The notes under the pieces: model-generated | The model's input: the letters and a program-made list of their open reading frames with translations, nothing else | What the model was told of the DNA's origin: nothing | Databases searched by the model: none | Position numbers and translations under genes: made by a program | Sequence record: NC_007023.1 | DNA from: Escherichia phage RB43 | Direction: 5' to 3' (one strand) | Length of the DNA stretch: 64,000 nucleotides | In this document: positions 5,457-50,783 of the stretch, one piece after another | How the letters are laid out: each line of letters starts with the position of its first letter | Position numbering within the stretch: position 1 is the first letter of the stretch

Positions 5457-6080
5457 TCACCCATTATGTTTAAAGTATTCGATCTGACGCAGACGTTTTT
5501 CTGCTGCATCTTTCGAATCATATTCACCAAGTTCTTTCGTGCGGTCCTGATTGAGTATAACCCATTTATCGCCGCGCTGTTCGATGTGCTCCGTGATATC
5601 TTCAACAGTCTTATCGAGATCCAACGATTCAGCATCTTCCTCGATAATAGTCAAATCAACAGGCAGTGTCAACAGCCTTTTCACTCCGCTGATATCTTCT
5701 ATGCGGGAATCATACGCAAGCGTAACATGCGGTTTGTAATCGTCGAAATCATACGTTGCTCCGGCATCCATCGCATCTTTGAAACGGCTATGCAGATAAT
5801 CAGACTCCAGAACACCAACGATTGTATTACCATATTTCGTGTCCCACTTTTCGACATCAACCAAACGGGCAGGTTCAGAGATACCGGACGCAGGGAACAA
5901 ATCAACCGTTTTGCGGCTATACACAATCGTTGTATGCAGTTTTGCAGCAGAAACAGGATTCTCTACACCCAGAAGTTTTTGCACCTGTGCAAGCGCTTCA
6001 CAGGAAGCCTGATCGAACTTCGCACACATATACACACCTGGATCTTTCACAGGTTTTGCAACTTCAAGAAAACTTTTCAT
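5457..6080 (-). CDS. 57B: 2H phosphoesterase, T4 gene 57B / Acb1-like
   Basis: Two H-x-T/S-x motifs (HTTIVYS, HVTLAYD); position next to 57A and gene 1 as in T4; GGAG SD before ATG. Confidence 0.6.
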   Translation of the reverse strand: MKSFLEVAKPVKDPGVYMCAKFDQASCEALAQVQKLLGVENPVSAAKLHTTIVYSRKTVDLFPASGISEPARLVDVEKWDTKYGNTIVGVLESDYLHSRFKDAMDAGATYDFDDYKPHVTLAYDSRIEDISGVKRLLTLPVDLTIIEEDAESLDLDKTVEDITEHIEQRGDKWVILNQDRTKELGEYDSKDAAEKRLRQIEYFKHNG

Positions 6081-7087: not shown

Positions 7088-7621
7088 TTATTTTTTCCGT
7101 GGAGTCGGCACGATTACCTTTCCGTCAATTTCAATCTCCATATATGCGAAGTTGAACATAGCCATACAGGAAACGGCTTCATCCGAATCATTAGTGTACA
7201 TAAGCTCAAGCTCTCCCAGGTTGGAGGGCCAAGCACCATAAAAGCGAAATGTCGCCACAGTTTTTGATTGCGAGTTATCCAGGATATGCAAAGCCATTGC
7301 CTGTTGTGATTCACTCCATCGAATAGATTCGAAGGTGTTAAAATCGACGGTTCCAAGCATCCATAGGTAAACACCAAGATAGGATCGCAATTCTTCATCA
7401 ACAGCAAACCGAATAGTTAACGGATCGAACTCCATTGCTGAACCAGGGATCTTACTACGGATCATTGGGTTCAAGGGTGCATCCGTAATCGGTATTTTGA
7501 TAGATGGTAGTGTAACACCCTGAACCTGTAGTTTCAACCCTTTCATGTAATCATTATCAGGAATGTCTAAAAGAAAGTTGGTTGGTGAAATTTGGTTCAG
7601 GATCATAGCAGTTGTATTCAT
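7088..7621 (-). CDS. 3: tail completion / sheath stabiliser protein gp3
   Basis: 177 aa; tube-like fold pattern paralogous to gp19; T4 synteny (1-3-2-4-53-5). Confidence 0.65.
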   Translation of the reverse strand: MNTTAMILNQISPTNFLLDIPDNDYMKGLKLQVQGVTLPSIKIPITDAPLNPMIRSKIPGSAMEFDPLTIRFAVDEELRSYLGVYLWMLGTVDFNTFESIRWSESQQAMALHILDNSQSKTVATFRFYGAWPSNLGELELMYTNDSDEAVSCMAMFNFAYMEIEIDGKVIVPTPRKK

Positions 7622-7661
7622 AACATGATCTCCGTTTATAGATATTTATAACCAAGACCGT

Positions 7662-7829
7662 GAGCGAAGCGAACACACGAACGAAGTGAGTGTTTGGTAA
7701 CTCAACTACAGAACTACATAATTATATTTTAATATTTTATATATAGAGAAAAATGTAGTTTTTGGTATACTTTTTGTACAGATGTTAACTATCCGTCTTC
7801 GCTTCGCTTGACGGAACTCGCTTCGCTCG
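7662..7829. repeat. dyad-symmetric intergenic element, copy A
   Basis: Arms GAGCGAAGCGAA...CGAACGAAGTGAGTG / CTCGCTTCGCTCG around a 57-bp core (7712-7768) identical to 42423-42479; core is itself palindromic (AACTACAT...ATGTAGTT). Confidence 0.75.
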
Positions 7830-7903
7830 TAACCTTGAAAAAGTTATTGATCAATTCAATAAATAGGTATATCATACCCATACTTTCAAAAGAGATTGAA
7901 AAC

Positions 7904-8512
7904 ATGAAATCATTCAAAGAACTTATTTCTGAATCTGTTCAGAACAAAAAATTTGCAAAGACAGTTGATCTGGTTGACCGTGGTAATGCTTCAAAAGGTC
8001 AGATCGGTTTCTTACACTTCGCACATGGTGCTGACTACGATGTGTATGCTCCTGATTCTCACGATCTGGCTTACTTCGGTAAAGGCGTTGTTCGTTTGAA
8101 AGGTAAAACCACTGGCAAAACTCAGGCTGCTTATGTTGACTGGGCGAAAGGCACGGTTTCATTCTACAGCGGTGATCCTGCTGATGACCTGAAATTTGAC
8201 AAGCCAGCAAAATTCAAAGGTGCTTCCCTGTACAAAGAAGCGGAAGAGAACATTGATCTGTATAACCAGTTAGCGGAAGATTTCGAAATCGATCTTCCTC
8301 TGGATGAAGCGCTGGTGAAAGGCGGGATCTATAAACTGCCGAGTAACGATATGCACTTGCTGTATACCGGACGCACCAAAACCAAACCAACTGGGGAATA
8401 TGCGGTATTCACTGTTGTTGATGCTTCTGGTAAACCTCGTCTGGTATCCGGCGCACGATTCACCCAGGAATACAAAGGCGACGTAGTAGCCAAACTGGAA
8501 AAAGTCAAATAA
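7904..8512 (+). CDS. internal-protein-like protein with capsid targeting sequence (about 203 aa)
   Basis: N-terminus MKSFKELISE matches T4 CTS consensus MKTYQEFIAE; + gene inside minus-strand block; ATG at 7904 preferred over ORF-track start 7808. Confidence 0.6.
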   Translation: MKSFKELISESVQNKKFAKTVDLVDRGNASKGQIGFLHFAHGADYDVYAPDSHDLAYFGKGVVRLKGKTTGKTQAAYVDWAKGTVSFYSGDPADDLKFDKPAKFKGASLYKEAEENIDLYNQLAEDFEIDLPLDEALVKGGIYKLPSNDMHLLYTGRTKTKPTGEYAVFTVVDASGKPRLVSGARFTQEYKGDVVAKLEKVK

Positions 8513-8516
8513 AAAT

Positions 8517-8547
8517 AAAGCCCCTTCCTTTCGGTTGGGGCTTTTTG
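8517..8547. terminator. bidirectional rho-independent terminator
   Basis: AAAGCCCCTTCCTTTCGGTTGGGGCTTTTT; identical hairpin at 43536-43557. Confidence 0.6.
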
Positions 8548-9402
8548 TTAATATCTGTTCCAGACTTTTTTTGCCGAGAACGGTTTTCCTTTCGACACAA
8601 ACGCCTGTGTAGGCAACCAGACAGCTTTAGCCCAATCTTTCGGGGCTATTTCTGCAAGTGGTGAACGCAAATGGGCTGGTAGGTAGACTTTGATCATTTG
8701 ATCAGCCCCGCGCATTCCTTTTACGTTGTTCCAGTTGATTTTCAATCTGGTTTTGTTTGAAAGGCGATCCGTAGATCCGTAACCGCGTTTCAAGAGTTCT
8801 TCTAAGAATTCCTGTCGTGCTTTCGGTGGCGCATAGTGCAAGTTCAATCCATATAGAACCACGTTACCCGCTTTAGAACGTCCTGAACCCAGGAAGATGA
8901 TTAGCGGGAACCGATCCCAGTACGGTAGGGTGTCTTTATACTTCGCGTCATACACGAACGTATACAGGCGACCTGTTGCTGGTTTCGCTACCCTGTGCGT
9001 CTTGATACTGGTTTTGATGAAGTCACCAAACCATTCAGTCGATTCTTTCTGACGTTTCGCAGCGGGAACACCAACTGTAATTTTCCTTAAACTGTTTCGG
9101 AAATCGTTGATGATGTCAACCGTATGTTTTTTGCGATAGTCGTTACGTTTTCGTCGGGCTTCGGTTTCTGCCGTGCGTCGTGCGATTTCGTCATCAATTT
9201 GCTGTTTGTAACGGTGCATCGACTTCGTGAACGTCGCATATGCAATTCCGTTATCGTCTGCGAATTTTTTGGCTGTCATGCCTTTTAATTTTGCGCGTCG
9301 GAATTTAATACCAATCTCAACCCATTCCCCCAGCTTTCGCTTCGGTGGCGGTTTTGGCTTATCTTCTTCTGCGATGATCTCGAATTCAAATATAAAGCTC
9401 AT
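8548..9402 (-). CDS. 2: DNA end protector protein gp2
   Basis: 284 aa, basic; position between gp3 and gp4 as in T4. Confidence 0.6.
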   Translation of the reverse strand: MSFIFEFEIIAEEDKPKPPPKRKLGEWVEIGIKFRRAKLKGMTAKKFADDNGIAYATFTKSMHRYKQQIDDEIARRTAETEARRKRNDYRKKHTVDIINDFRNSLRKITVGVPAAKRQKESTEWFGDFIKTSIKTHRVAKPATGRLYTFVYDAKYKDTLPYWDRFPLIIFLGSGRSKAGNVVLYGLNLHYAPPKARQEFLEELLKRGYGSTDRLSNKTRLKINWNNVKGMRGADQMIKVYLPAHLRSPLAEIAPKDWAKAVWLPTQAFVSKGKPFSAKKVWNRY

Positions 9403-9935: not shown

Positions 9936-10490
9936 ATGTTATTTTCGTTCTTTCCACCAGTTGATTACAACGGTACACCAACTACTGATATCTTTCGTGA
10001 TTATCGTTTTTACTTTAATCGTGTGATCAGGAATTATAAGCCGCGTACATATCAACTGACAGGTTCATTAAGACCTGAACAATTAGCTGAAACGCTATAC
10101 GGAAACCAACAATATTATTGGGTTATCCTGATGCTCAATGACAACTATGACCCGTTTTATGGTTGGATCACAGATCAGGAAACAGCTTATCAATGCGCTG
10201 TTCAACGTTATTCAAAAGTAGGTGGTGAGCAGGTTCTTTATCACATGGATGGGAAAAACAACCGATATTACAATCTGGTTGAAGATCCTAACAACCCTGG
10301 TCATTGGTATGACAAAGGTGATAAAGACATGCGTTATTTGCAGTATCAGGGAACATTAGTCCCTATTGATATTTATGAAGACGCAGTGTTGAAAAATGAA
10401 TCAATGCGAACCATTAAGATTATTAACCCTTCGGATATTCAATCGTTTGTAAGCGATTATATCAAGGAAATGGAAAAGGCAAACACATGA
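9936..10490 (+). CDS. 53: baseplate wedge protein gp53
   Basis: MLFSFFPP...TDIFRDY...NDNYDPFYGWIT...WYDKGDK...IKII matches T4 gp53. Confidence 0.85.
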   Translation: MLFSFFPPVDYNGTPTTDIFRDYRFYFNRVIRNYKPRTYQLTGSLRPEQLAETLYGNQQYYWVILMLNDNYDPFYGWITDQETAYQCAVQRYSKVGGEQVLYHMDGKNNRYYNLVEDPNNPGHWYDKGDKDMRYLQYQGTLVPIDIYEDAVLKNESMRTIKIINPSDIQSFVSDYIKEMEKANT

Positions 10491-30704: not shown

Positions 30705-33038
<2,334 letters not shown>

Positions 33039-42384: not shown

Positions 42385-42543
42385 GAGCGAAGCGAATTTT
42401 CACGAACGAAGTGAGTGATAGGAACTACATAATTATATTTTAATATTTTATATATAGAGAAAAATGTAGTTTTTGGTATGGTTTTTAACCAGATGTAAAC
42501 TAACATTCACTCACTACGTTCGTTCATGTACTCGCTTCGCTCG
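42385..42543. repeat. dyad-symmetric intergenic element, copy B
   Basis: Same arms and identical 57-bp core (42423-42479) as copy A; arms form an imperfect ~34-bp inverted repeat. Confidence 0.75.
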
Positions 42544-42548
42544 TAAAT

Positions 42549-43215: not shown

Positions 43216-43532
43216 GTGGGAATATGAACACGGAAGATGTTGACTTTTTCGACGAAAGGCCGGATCTGATTGATTCCGGTTGTTTCGAAGATGAACACCC
43301 AGATTTTTAATCAGTAAATAGATGTGTACCCCTTGTTGGGCTTGGGCTTGCCGTATGGCGTACCCATTTGCGCCGTCCGATAGAATTTACTTTCGGCGGG
43401 GTGATTGGTAAAATACCTTCGAGTAAAGGCCAGTGAATAGTAATTCGGAATAGTACCGCACCGAAATAAATAAATGTACTTCCTCGCGGTTCTGTTATGC
43501 CGCTGTTTATATGACTGCGGTTATATAAAATT

Positions 43533-43566
43533 AAAGCCCCTTCCTTTCGGTTGGGGCTTCTTTTTT
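43533..43566. terminator. bidirectional rho-independent terminator
   Basis: AAAGCCCCTTCCTTTCGGTTGGGGCTTCTTTTTT; hairpin identical to 8520-8541. Confidence 0.6.
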
Positions 43567-43795
43567 AGAACTTCTCTTCTTCTCCGGTTTCAAGTTCGGC
43601 TTTGAGTTCTTCACGCCGTCCCTTGATCGCGTCACGCATTGAAATGTCATCGGATGCTGCAACTTCAACTTCCTTGACCCGCGTATTGTAATACTTTTCC
43701 AACTCTTTCAAACCGTCCAATGTACGGCACGAAGCAACTTTATTCATGAAATCATCAATTGCGGCTTCGTTAACGAATTCAGTAAAACTTTTCAT
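43565..43795 (-). CDS. small capsid-targeting-sequence protein (76 aa)
   Basis: N-terminus MKSFTEFVNEA matches T4 CTS; GAGG SD; co-transcribed downstream of uvsW. Confidence 0.55.
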   Translation of the reverse strand: MKSFTEFVNEAAIDDFMNKVASCRTLDGLKELEKYYNTRVKEVEVAASDDISMRDAIKGRREELKAELETGEEEKF

Positions 43796-45375: not shown

Positions 45376-46296
45376 ATGAAAATTGATTACGAATTGGTAG
45401 AAGGGTTCCGTGCTCTGCCTACTAAAGAACAGAAAGGCGCACTGGCTGACTACGCTCAAAGCACCTTTGAAGTAAAATTGAACAAACAAAAATCATTCGA
45501 TAACATGCTGGCTGATCTGGAAGCTGCTGTACCAGCGGAAGAAGAAAAACCGGAACTGCTGATTGATTCCCCAGAATCCGCGATCGTTTCGTACACTGGT
45601 AGCGTTGCAATGGATGAACCTGTTGTTAACGCTCCGAACATTCCTGATGTTGTTGTCGATGTGTCGCAGGACTTTATGGATTACGTCAAAGACGTTGCGC
45701 CGGAAGTGGCTGATCAGATTAAATTAGTCCCTGATGTTGTTGTCGATGTGTCGCAGGACTTTATGGATTACGTCAAAGACGTTGCGCCGGAAGTGGCTGA
45801 TCAGATTAAATTAGTCCCTGATGTTGTTGTCGATGTGTCGCAGGACTTTATGGATTACGTCAAAGACGTTGCGCCGGAAGTGGCTGATCAGATTAAATTA
45901 GTCCCTGATGTTGTTGTCGATGTGTCGCAGGACTTTATGGATTACGTCAAAGACGTTGCGCCGGAAGTGGCTGATCAGATTAAATTAGTCCCTGATGTTG
46001 TAGAAGCGTCTGTAACCGCTTCTGACGAGTCCAAAGCTGATATGGCATGGTTGGACGGGTTTAGCCCTACAATCGTTCTGATGGGGCGTAGCGCTCGTTC
46101 TAACGGCTATTATACGTGTCCCTGGTGGATCTACGATTGGATTAAGAAAAATCCAGATTGGTACAAAGATCCTGACCAGTGTCCACACTACAGCGCACGG
46201 GATACCCTGAAATCGCTGGTGTACTACATCAAACGTGATGGTCAAGTTACTGTGCGTGAAACGCGCAACAGCAGTTTCGATACCTTCAAATTTTAG
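45376..46296 (+). CDS. hypothetical protein with 4 identical 29-aa repeats and C-terminal PWWIYD domain
   Basis: 306-aa ORF; repeat PDVVVDVSQDFMDYVKDVAPEVADQIKLV x4; C-terminal YYTCPWWIYDWIKKNPDWY. Confidence 0.6.
   Translation: MKIDYELVEGFRALPTKEQKGALADYAQSTFEVKLNKQKSFDNMLADLEAAVPAEEEKPELLIDSPESAIVSYTGSVAMDEPVVNAPNIPDVVVDVSQDFMDYVKDVAPEVADQIKLVPDVVVDVSQDFMDYVKDVAPEVADQIKLVPDVVVDVSQDFMDYVKDVAPEVADQIKLVPDVVVDVSQDFMDYVKDVAPEVADQIKLVPDVVEASVTASDESKADMAWLDGFSPTIVLMGRSARSNGYYTCPWWIYDWIKKNPDWYKDPDQCPHYSARDTLKSLVYYIKRDGQVTVRETRNSSFDTFKF
45643..45990 (+). repeat. perfect tandem repeat, 4 x 87 bp (plus 11-bp partial fifth unit)
   Basis: Units at 45643, 45730, 45817, 45904 identical by eye; in-frame inside CDS. 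Confidence 0.9.
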
Positions 46297-48916: not shown

Positions 48917-49750
48917 TCAACCCCATGTATCGGTTTTGGGTGCGTATGCTGCAACTTTAGCAACCAATTCCTTATCAAGCTGGTCAATAGATTTCTGTGC
49001 TTTACCTTTTGACTTAACTTTGATGTAGTTAGACTTGACAACAAACATACCGCCTTTGTCAGATTTTTTGATCTCGCTATCGATACCAACTTTGTTAAAG
49101 CTGATCCAGATATCACCATCCATATACTGTTTCAGTGAATCGCCCATGTTCAGGATCTTAGCCATAGTAAGAGCGGCCCCTTCGTGGGTATCCATGAGGA
49201 TCTCTTTAGGAACCACACGGTCACGTTTCAGGTTCTGCTGCATAGCAATATGAACATCGTTCATTACCCAAACGATATGGATGTTTTCTTTATGGTATCC
49301 CAGCGTTTCAACGTCACGGGCAATGCTTGCCAGCTTGCTCATGCTTTTTAGGGTAACGTCGAAAATCAGGTTTGGTTTGCGGTCTTCTGGTGCTGCTGCA
49401 ATACCAGCATAAACACGCGCCTGGTTTTTGTTGGATACGTTGAAAACGTCTGCGATCACATGATGCAGGGTTGCCACGTTATCCGGGTTTTTCAGGTTCA
49501 TGGTTTTAACATCATGACCAGTTTTAGCTTTGATTTCTGCCGCCAGTTTGGTGCTACCCATTACCAGCTTTTTCAGTGCGTCAACGTCCAGTGTGATTCC
49601 TTCGATACCTAACAGTTTTTCGAGGGTAAAACCTTTACCGGAACCCGCACCGCCAGCCAGGATCACAACCTGACCAAATTTAGGATATGCCTTGCCGCCA
49701 AACGTAATCAACGCTTCGTCAAGGGATACAAAGTCTTTGAATGATTTCAT
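48917..49750 (-). CDS. capsid-targeting-sequence protein with P-loop kinase-like domain
   Basis: N-terminus MKSFKDFVSLDEA (CTS-like) followed by Walker A VVILAGGAGSGKGFT. Confidence 0.6.
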   Translation of the reverse strand: MKSFKDFVSLDEALITFGGKAYPKFGQVVILAGGAGSGKGFTLEKLLGIEGITLDVDALKKLVMGSTKLAAEIKAKTGHDVKTMNLKNPDNVATLHHVIADVFNVSNKNQARVYAGIAAAPEDRKPNLIFDVTLKSMSKLASIARDVETLGYHKENIHIVWVMNDVHIAMQQNLKRDRVVPKEILMDTHEGAALTMAKILNMGDSLKQYMDGDIWISFNKVGIDSEIKKSDKGGMFVVKSNYIKVKSKGKAQKSIDQLDKELVAKVAAYAPKTDTWG

Positions 49751-49862: not shown

Positions 49863-50783
49863 ATGAAACTTGAATTAAACCGCTTCATCAAAGCCGCTGC
49901 TGCTGGCGACCAGTCAAAATACAAATCCCGTCGCGATACCCTGATTGACGATTTCTGTAATCTGCTGGGGTTCAAGCGCTGGCATACTCCGTCTATGCGT
50001 CCAGACTGTGATCCAAAATGGGATTACTTCAAATGGACTCCCCGCGATCGTGGTTATGTCGATAACGTCCGCGTAATGACATTCACTCATATGTACGCAA
50101 ATGCAATAATAGAAGTTGCCAAACGTAATAATTCTACGTACCCGAACGGGTGGAAGGTTGCAGAAGTCATTGAAACCCTGATGCAACTGCGCCGTGAATA
50201 TAAAGCTGGAATGATGATGCAACTGCGCCGTGAATATAAAGCTGGAATGATACGTAAATTGGAAGAACAATCCGAAAGACATGAATATAAAGAATGGTCT
50301 ATCGTCGCAAAATATCTGCTGAACATCACCTATTCGGTTTTCTGTCGCTTCGGAACAAAAGAAATCGGGTTCGGTTCTCATGATATCATTGCAGAAGCCC
50401 GTCATCGCCTGACATACGCGATCCTGAAAATTCAAAATTCCGGTGGTCTTGTTCTGGCTGCATTCTGTGATGAAATTGTGTACTACGGCGATCAGGTTGA
50501 AGTTGAAGGTGTTCACCACGAAAAATTCAACAAACTTGTGTTCGGACAATATAACAGCTATTCATACGGAAACGATATCCGCGTGATGATGCACCCGCGT
50601 ATTATGCTGGATATGGAAGGGTGGGAACCTGGACACGGGATCGGTGATATCGAAAGCCAGCGTGAACGCCGTGTTCGTTCTGTCGCAAAAGCTCGCGAAT
50701 TGATGACGGGTAGCCTTACTGATTACCTGTTCAGAACAAAAGAAGACGTTGAAAAAGAATTTGTTGACTTGTCGGGCGAATAG
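49863..50783 (+). CDS. hypothetical protein (306 aa) containing a 36-bp tandem duplication
   Basis: ORF; MQLRREYKAGMM / MQLRREYKAGMI duplicated in frame. Confidence 0.55.
   Translation: MKLELNRFIKAAAAGDQSKYKSRRDTLIDDFCNLLGFKRWHTPSMRPDCDPKWDYFKWTPRDRGYVDNVRVMTFTHMYANAIIEVAKRNNSTYPNGWKVAEVIETLMQLRREYKAGMMMQLRREYKAGMIRKLEEQSERHEYKEWSIVAKYLLNITYSVFCRFGTKEIGFGSHDIIAEARHRLTYAILKIQNSGGLVLAAFCDEIVYYGDQVEVEGVHHEKFNKLVFGQYNSYSYGNDIRVMMHPRIMLDMEGWEPGHGIGDIESQRERRVRSVAKARELMTGSLTDYLFRTKEDVEKEFVDLSGE
50181..50252 (+). repeat. tandem duplication, 2 x 36 bp (35/36 identical)
   Basis: ATGCAACTGCGCCGTGAATATAAAGCTGGAATGAT(G/A) repeated head to tail. Confidence 0.85.

Follow-up and report, generated by a model that had tools for sequence, protein, structure and literature searches.

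The head proteins that a phage injects together with its DNA are the first to meet the defences of the host. Among those of phage T4, IPI and IPIII act against host defences and have unrelated bodies, and to our knowledge only these two have known roles there, IPI as an inhibitor of GmrSD and IPIII as a protein needed on ECOR17. The subject of this analysis is an open reading frame (ORF) at 7904–8512 of a 64,000-nucleotide stretch of Escherichia phage RB43 (record NC_007023.1), which is called the window below. The product of this gene is probably, if by no means surely, an internal head protein in the RB43/RB16/KP15 clade, which would be directed by a capsid-targeting sequence (CTS), processed by a protease and injected with the DNA; that is to say, its relatives would form a probable new internal head protein family.

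It has been reported that the first 10 residues of IPIII are sufficient for encapsidation, that positions 4 and 7 of the CTS serve targeting and positions 8 and 10 serve processing, and that the rule is an aromatic residue at 4, a hydrophobic one at 7, I or L at 8 and E at 10 (PMC9026906). The RB43 protein is similar to IPI, IPII and IPIII in having a tag of about ten residues that agrees in the key positions and closes with [LI]xE plus a small residue. Moreover, its gene looks non-essential and lies among virion genes, and its body is without homologues outside a narrow phage clade, as with the T4 internal proteins. However, the body is not homologous to theirs and is neutral, not basic; the locus lies between genes 3 and 2 on the opposite strand and not beside 57B or e; the family has two folded beta domains and swappable C-terminal modules; and it is conserved across genera and not hypervariable, with its packaging only predicted.

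Larger cargo can also be trimmed in the head. T4 Alt is cut at both ends by the prohead protease (PMC9026906), and head proteins of the giant phages SPN3US and phiKZ are reported to be cleaved at S/A/G-x-E-type sites. The RB43 family is comparable to these as a larger cargo that would enter the prohead core and be trimmed at more than one site, but the RB43 protein has no sequence or fold relation to them and no recognisable enzymatic domain, and the cleavage between modules is only predicted in its family.

The third comparison is with PeSL of RB49 and phi1, a unit of a strong early promoter and a GGGG/CCCC stem-loop that is repeated on both sides of an ORFan (PMC2839356). The RB43 gene is likewise bracketed by repeated regulatory DNA, its GCCCC...GGGGC terminator and sigma-70-like promoter are found again elsewhere with order and orientation unchanged, and its 3′ module and terminator are 90–98% identical between genera against 50–85% for the rest, which would be expected with recombination at such elements. 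RB43 differs in that its two flanks, 5′ and 3′, are different elements (the dyad in three copies, the terminator in two) and not copies of one composite unit, so that they do not form a PeSL cassette; that the 5′ element, with only three copies, consists of an AT-rich core within a dyad of about 165 bp; and that the bracketed gene is conserved and no ORFan, the other bracketed unit being the core uvsY operon.

The gene and its capsid-targeting-like start

The gene and its tag have the following coordinates (in this text a slash in a sequence marks a cleavage position).

7904–8512, + strand: coding sequence of a 202-residue protein, stop codon included; the same coding sequence is annotated in the public RB43 record
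7904–7933, + strand: CTS-like tag, codons 1–10 (MKSFKELISE), ending in a protease-type site, I-S-E/S

First of all, the gene is real and conserved. Phage RB43 (Pseudotevenvirus) matches the region 7600–8600 of the window at 100% identity, and many phages like RB16 and Miller do so at 86–96%. The public RB43 record labels the coding sequence 'protein of unknown function' and gives the identical start. The earlier note on this DNA had described a 203-residue ORF: the frame stands as it gave it (ATG at 7904, stop ending at 8512, + strand), and the length is corrected to 202 residues. A longer frame from a TTG at 7808 was rejected; because this frame is unconserved and overlaps the promoter and the upstream dyad, the ATG at 7904 is taken as the true start.

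By tblastn, the family is present in 177 phage records. Pseudotevenvirus members are 90–100% identical to the RB43 protein, Slopekvirus (KP15-like) about 74%, Pantoea phage Phynn about 70% and Morganella phage vB_Mm5 35%, and Aeromonas phage avDM6 carries just one domain of the family. The RB43 protein falls into PHROG 7322, function unknown (E = 1e-128); this entry and UniProt K0NVX8 (RB43) and D5JFK0 (KP15), which are also matches in BFVD, are the very same family, and they differ from the present description in that the database entries have no function, motif or virion annotation. Since a profile search of 1.84 billion representative proteins gave only 11 matches, all from the same family or fragments of it, the family is narrow. 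The gene, which the earlier note took as novel, is already annotated as hypothetical in the 177 records.

The tag has F4, L7, I8 and E10, in agreement with the CTS rule. In the T4 record, IPII and IPIII begin with MKTYQEFIAE/A and IPI begins with MKTFKEFTST, and the likeness of MKSFKELISE to a CTS, which the earlier note had pointed out, is borne out. In a family alignment of 18 members or clusters, F4, K5 and E10 are invariant and [LI]xE closes the tag in every member, with residues 11–30 varying freely. The strict pattern ^MK[STN][FY].[ED][FLIVMY][IVLMT].[ED] was searched in the ATG-started ORFs of at least 40 residues in the T4 and RB43 genomes. It occurs in 3 of 1580 ORFs in T4 (IPIII, IPII and gp61.1) and in 2 of 2110 in RB43 (the 7904–8512 ORF and a UvsW.1 homologue), and therefore the motif is rare and, in T4, mostly a mark of true internal proteins.

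The foremost alternative is that the protein is a non-packaged cytoplasmic accessory protein with early or middle expression from a sigma-70-like promoter, and that the tag is a lineage habit or a coincidence. This is considered unlikely, and the rarity of the strict pattern, which picks true internal proteins in T4, is one argument against it; the others are given below together with the evidence in its favour.

Several related starts were recorded in the two genomes. The T4 gene 61.1 (NC_000866, 18966–19130, − strand) encodes the hypothetical 54-residue gp61.1, which begins with MKTFKEFIKE/D and is the sole T4 ORF besides IPII and IPIII that fits the strict pattern. The UvsW.1 homologue of RB43 (window 43565–43795, − strand, 76 residues, PF11637, E = 1e-17) begins with MKSFTEFVNE/AA; T4 UvsW.1 begins with MLLEFKQFLYE/AS, and UvsW.1 is not a known virion protein. 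A P-loop protein of 277 residues (GGAGSGKG; window 48917–49750, − strand; Zeta_toxin PF06414, E = 3e-7; PHROG 5268) begins with MKSFKDFVSLDE/A, that is, a CTS-like tag with an L-D-E/A site, and AATAAATA, an octamer of the T4 late-promoter type, lies 26 nt upstream of its gene. This zeta-toxin-like protein is a candidate packaged kinase-like enzyme. The homologue of Acb1, the protein against the cyclic-oligonucleotide-based antiphage signalling system (anti-CBASS; T4 gp57B), lies at 5457–6080 of the window (− strand, PF23474, E = 3e-48) and begins with MKSFLEVAKP; it has no [LI]xE[ASG] site despite this CTS-similar N-terminus. T4 57B itself begins with MMEFKDFSTG and adjoins ipI, the gene of IPI.

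Protease-type sites and the modular build of the family

The layout of the RB43 protein is the CTS-like tag, a variable spacer, D1 (a conserved beta-rich domain, about residues 20–125), a linker, D2 (a small beta domain, about residues 138–190) and a short tail. In the AlphaFold2 model of the RB43 protein (predicted local distance difference test, pLDDT, 76; predicted template modelling score, pTM, 0.70), the tag and the D1–D2 linker are floppy, with the linker block at pLDDT 57–64. A second protease-type site lies in this linker.

8300–8311, + strand: L-D-E-A, residues 133–136, in the D1–D2 linker

In the alignment column of L-D-E-A the motif is present in 7 of the 18 members. RB43 retains the maturation site of T4 gp23, FLAE/AEIAGDH, and therefore the RB43 protease should share the L/I-x-E specificity. 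The [LI]xE[ASG] motif was counted in the family and in other RB43 proteins, and the counts expected were taken from shuffled sequences.

Family, mean of the 18 members: 2.9 observed, 0.46 expected (about 6-fold)
RB43 gp22: 9 observed, 0.9 expected
RB43 gp68: 3 observed, 0.44 expected
RB43 gp21: 3 observed, 0.53 expected
RB43 gp23: 4 observed, all in the propeptide (first 66 residues), 1.15 expected
RB43 gp24: 1 observed, at residue 26, 0.6 expected
gp1, gp3, gp2, gp4, gp53 and gp5 pooled: 0 observed, 2.15 expected

In the family these motifs are limited to six columns, namely the tag end, the D1 end, the D1–D2 linker, the D2 end and two module junctions. In the AlphaFold2 model of a 344-residue relative, the low-confidence segments (1–14, about 188–210 and 280–288) coincide with the motifs, and D1, D2, module B and module A, the latter two being C-terminal modules described below, are confidently folded. 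This distribution of sites is the strongest new evidence for an internal protein. A cytoplasmic protein would have no reason for such an excess solely at the tag end and the junctions, and the distribution mirrors that of head-core substrates and is absent from the six neighbouring non-head proteins, so it speaks against the non-packaged alternative as well.

Most relatives consist of tag and D1, with or without D2, followed by one or two interchangeable C-terminal modules. Some members are without D2, and one member of 133 residues is tag and D1 alone. In the relatives a linker ...KL(V/T)L(A/V)E(S/A)E is followed by one of several C-terminal arrangements:

Module A: about 55 residues, helical, C-terminal
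Module B: about 65 residues, helical, C-terminal
Module C: about 100 residues, in only three Slopekvirus isolates (tblastn)
Modules B and A in tandem: a further C-terminal arrangement of relatives

Compared with RB16, Miller and KP15, RB43 has lost module A through an in-frame deletion of about 177 nt. Margaery, leN and GuL6 share this deletion and align with RB43 over the full 202 residues. When the DNA of Miller and RB16 was compared with that of KP15, the identity was 50–58% in the first 120 nt, 73–85% in the middle and 90–98% in module A and the terminator; in the same comparison gp3 gave 55–77% and gp2 72–85%. Because the identity climbs toward module A and the terminator, a recent exchange of the gene's 3′ end between phages is suggested.

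Stand-alone and displaced parts of the family were also recorded. Outside the window, at about 10273–10431 (− strand) of the RB43 record HE981739, there is a stand-alone 53-residue paralogue of module A (MKNLEAKVVKALVKNGFNEKDAV...), near dexA and a DNA helicase gene and 58% identical to the fused module of RB16; Cronobacter phage Invicta has it too. When modules B+A and C were used in word-indexed searches, this stand-alone paralogue was the only match. In avDM6 (Ishigurovirus; locus L016, 2958–3875) the D1 core (…DRHDTSYFGDGVARV…KGTVSF…FEKPVKFKK) ends a 305-residue protein that is otherwise unrelated, at a non-syntenic site, and D1 is therefore a mobile domain in its own right.

A further proposal, which is put forward tentatively and is held to be possible though less likely than not, is that the family is a natural carrier–cargo polyprotein. 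The carrier (CTS and D1, with or without D2) would ferry the interchangeable modules A, B, C or B+A into the prohead, where the protease would cut the [LI]xE[AS] linkers and free small injected proteins; the modules would swap between genera via the invariant terminator, and RB43 would have a 'cargo-less' deletion allele.

Locus, expression signals and flanking repeats

The genes on either side are as follows.

7088–7621, − strand: gp3, T4 gp19/tail-tube family
8548–9402, − strand: gp2, DNA end protector

Farther upstream of the ORF lie gp1 (deoxynucleoside monophosphate kinase), gp57A and the Acb1/57B homologue, and farther downstream gp4, gp53 and gp5. The position between genes 3 and 2 was confirmed, as was the adjacency of these two genes in T4, where the gap is 106 bp. 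Since every annotated upstream gene in the fetched stretch is on the − strand, the ORF is the lone + strand gene of the run, as the earlier note had read it. The position convergent with gp2 is kept in RB16, Miller, KP15 and vB_Mm5 and on two metagenomic contigs, that is, in four lineages and both contigs; this and the virion-gene surroundings are counted in favour of an internal protein.

Nothing fills the slot between gp3 and gp2 in T4, Karamvirus AS6, Pectobacterium phage POP12 and Vibrio phage nt-1. The gene is therefore best regarded as a clade-specific insertion and not as a site where alternative genes replace one another, because the slot holds nothing in T4, Karamvirus, POP12 and nt-1. 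A general hypervariable slot between gp3 and gp2 was considered and rejected, the slot being empty in Karamvirus, POP12 and nt-1. Between RB43 and KP15 the amino acid identity is 74% for the ORF (over the shared ~200 residues), against 68% for gp3, 85% for gp2, 82% for gp4 and 47% for gp1. The body evolves like its essential neighbours. The earlier note's 'hypervariable' cassette is not what these values describe (74% for the body against 68% for gp3 and 85% for gp2), nor is this a locus of the ipI type where unrelated tag-bearing ORFs swap, the same ORF filling the slot in the 177 records; the variation between phages is confined to the C-terminal modules.

Two promoter-like signals precede the gene.

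7858–7865, + strand: late-promoter-like octamer AATAAATA, T4-type, 38 nt before the ATG at 7904
7847–7875, + strand: sigma-70-like promoter TTGATC-17-TATCAT, 9/12 match

In the window, gp23 and gp2 also have the AATAAATA variant, at 49 and 18 nt upstream respectively, and the canonical TATAAATA precedes gp3, gp20 and gp22. At the equivalent place in relatives, RB16 and Miller have AATAAATA, and vB_Mm5 and the metagenomic contig L021 have TATAAATA. A late-promoter-like element at a conserved position is a further point against a non-packaged protein. As for the sigma-70-like promoter, a 9/12 match is no commoner than in shuffled sequence; its position is kept in RB16, Miller, KP15 (TTTACC-17-TACTAT), L020 and L021, and this conservation across lineages favours the non-packaged alternative. 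Early plus late transcription of the RB43 gene is possible on these signals.

Repeated elements flank the gene on both sides and recur elsewhere in the genome.

7662–7828, no strand assigned: dyad-repeat element, copy A, GC-rich inverted arms (GAGCGAAGCGAA...) around an 81-nt AT-rich core
42385–42545, no strand assigned: dyad-repeat element, copy B, between gp24 and uvsY
About 32170–32310 of the RB43 record HE981739, outside the window: third dyad copy, in a divergent intergenic region
8518–8547, no strand assigned: bidirectional intrinsic terminator AAAGCCCCTTCCTTTCGGTTGGGGCTTTTT, shared with the convergent gene 2, found by folding
43536–43561, no strand assigned: second terminator copy, between the uvsY operon (+) and the UvsW.1 homologue (−)

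The core at 7711–7791 recurs at 42422–42502 with 93% identity, with GAGCGAAGCGAA-type inverted arms flanking both, and the dyad element of about 165 bp has exactly three copies in the RB43 genome. Copy A (single-strand DNA fold, z = −2.75) is kept in RB16 and Miller and absent in KP15. UvsY next to copy B was identified by PF11056 (E = 4e-36), and annotated replication genes are part of the − strand block that adjoins the third copy. The arms hold GCGAAGC motifs and the core has an inner dyad (ACTACAT...ATGTAGT). vB_Mm5 carries a related dyad arm, CACTCACTACGTTCG, and its record and the two metagenomic contigs begin inside or beside the dyad element, as expected for assemblies broken at repeats. 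Since T4 has oriF at uvsY and oriE near gene 5, an origin-like or regulator-binding role of the dyad would, by analogy, be worth testing.

The terminator hairpin at 8520 has a folding energy of −17 kcal/mol (z = −3.95), and because an A-run stands before it and a T-run after it, it can terminate both the ORF and gene 2; the annotation of phage Miller gives the same hairpin as a terminator on both strands. RB16, Miller and KP15 have the terminator in identical form. At 43536 there is an exact repeat of its 22-nt core GCCCCTTCCTTTCGGTTGGGGC, making two genomic copies, and the wider repeat (8504–8556 against 43520–43572) is 85% identical. A scan of 7500–8650 with Rfam gave nothing above threshold.

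Both repeats that the earlier note had named, the upstream dyad and the downstream terminator recurring at 43536, are thus real. Its further suggestion that they are the borders of an internal-protein cassette did not hold up, for they also bracket the uvsY operon and the dyad has three genomic copies. Both bracketed units have the same order of dyad element, sigma-70-like promoter, genes and terminator, and the flanking repeats belong to a genome-wide regulatory element that is not specific to this gene. The non-packaged alternative gains here, in that the same upstream dyad and promoter arrangement drives uvsY, a recombination gene.

Two other repeats were observed in the window. At 45556–46077 a unit of 87 nt is repeated five times in tandem, three of the copies being identical, within a 306-residue ORF (45376–46296, + strand) that has only a weak helix-hairpin-helix match. 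At 50179–50250 there is a perfect 36-nt tandem duplication (TGATGCAACTGCGCCGTGAATATAAAGCTGGAATGA twice) within an ORF at 49863–50783 (+ strand).

Proposed fate and role of the protein

If the protein is an internal head protein, the course of events may be as follows. It would be made late, and possibly early too; the tag MKSFKELISE would act like the T4 CTS, so that the protein enters the prohead's scaffolding core. A prohead protease of the gp21 type would then cut after Glu10 (I-S-E/S) and may also cut the D1–D2 linker (L-D-E/A). The mature protein of about 21 kDa would remain in the head and be ejected into the host with the DNA, where it would most likely act, without an enzyme signature, as a factor for takeover in the first minute or for counter-defence through target binding. 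Packaging, cleavage, ejection and host role are what we infer from these signals.

The role in the host is approached by analogy. Pfam and NCBIfam gave no family match for the RB43 ORF or its long relatives, a hidden Markov model search of the PDB sequences gave no match, and Foldseek against PDB with both AlphaFold2 models gave nothing at E ≤ 0.001. In BFVD the search returned the family itself and a 118-residue uncharacterised protein of Vibrio phage nt-1 (template modelling score 0.64), which is the one structural relative of D1. The comparison with T4 IPIII by hhalign showed no relation past the tag (probability 0.8%), nothing outside the tag is homologous to IPI, IPII or IPIII, and no likeness to the fold or sequence of IPI*, the GmrSD inhibitor, was found by the Pfam, NCBIfam, PDB sequence or Foldseek searches. 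The profile and structure searches, which gave no family or fold, are in line with the earlier statement that the body has no recognised motif. A catalytic metal site made up of the invariant H38, H41, D51, H53 and D54 was rejected, since these residues are lost in vB_Mm5 and avDM6; the loss of clade-invariant His and Asp residues from distant members speaks against an active site that depends on a metal. The host role would, on the model of IPI and IPIII, most plausibly be the binding and neutralising of a host factor; an anti-restriction role may be proposed by analogy only.

Some observations weigh against an internal head protein. The mature part is approximately neutral (21 kDa, isoelectric point 7.8, 28 K+R against 27 D+E), so that it is not the small, basic, lysine-rich protein that IPI–III are, although this property is not strictly defining. 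A literature search found no virion mass spectrometry for Pseudotevenvirus or Slopekvirus; the sole virion proteome found for a T4-like phage of Klebsiella is from a Jiaodavirus, a genus absent among the tblastn matches listed. The octamer position reads only CTAAATA in KP15 and L020, chance alone should give several copies of AATAAATA in 64 kb of AT-rich DNA, and the sigma-70-like promoter overlaps the late element, the octamer being inside its spacer. The KP15 protein has three extra residues (MTHLKKFKEFLTE) ahead of the tag, and in vB_Mm5 the tag is shifted (MGFKSFIEKQ). In addition, MKSF-type starts are found on the RB43 homologues of UvsW.1, Acb1/57B and the zeta-toxin-like P-loop protein, and since none of these is known to be packaged, the T4 control perhaps overstates how diagnostic the motif is, unless the number of packaged proteins is larger than has been thought. 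These other MKSF-type starts and the neutral isoelectric point also favour a non-packaged cytoplasmic protein, as does the stand-alone module A gene in the early region of RB43.

The other alternative, that the protein is a non-essential accessory of the prohead core or scaffold, which would be cleaved like gp67, gp68 and gp22 and largely degraded and expelled instead of being delivered, is improbable: the same tag and protease-site evidence, a motif density like that of gp68 and gp21, an effect of T4 IPIII on head assembly as well (PMC9026906) and a body as conserved as structural genes within the clade would suit it, but the sites are confined to linkers, D1 and D2 should survive proteolysis because they are folded and site-free, RB43 already has homologues of gp22, gp67 and gp68, T4, Karamvirus, POP12 and nt-1 build similar heads without the gene, and the swapping of C-terminal modules looks adaptive, not structural.

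In summary, the idea of an internal protein in the earlier note is partly supported: the tag is good and the protein is a credible internal-protein candidate, and it is neither part of a hypervariable cassette nor a new sequence.

The RB43/KP15 clade includes many phages of Klebsiella, Enterobacter, Cronobacter and Citrobacter that are considered for therapy, and we know of no internal protein named in it so far. If the protein is packaged, it would be a candidate injected effector for this clade, its ten-residue tag could be used for loading foreign proteins into the heads of these phages, and the natural swapping of modules behind a fixed carrier would help explain the host-range differences of near-identical phages. 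If the carrier–cargo proposal is true, the presence of the tag on the zeta-toxin-like protein and on UvsW.1 would mean that the injected set is larger and more enzymatic than the T4 paradigm.

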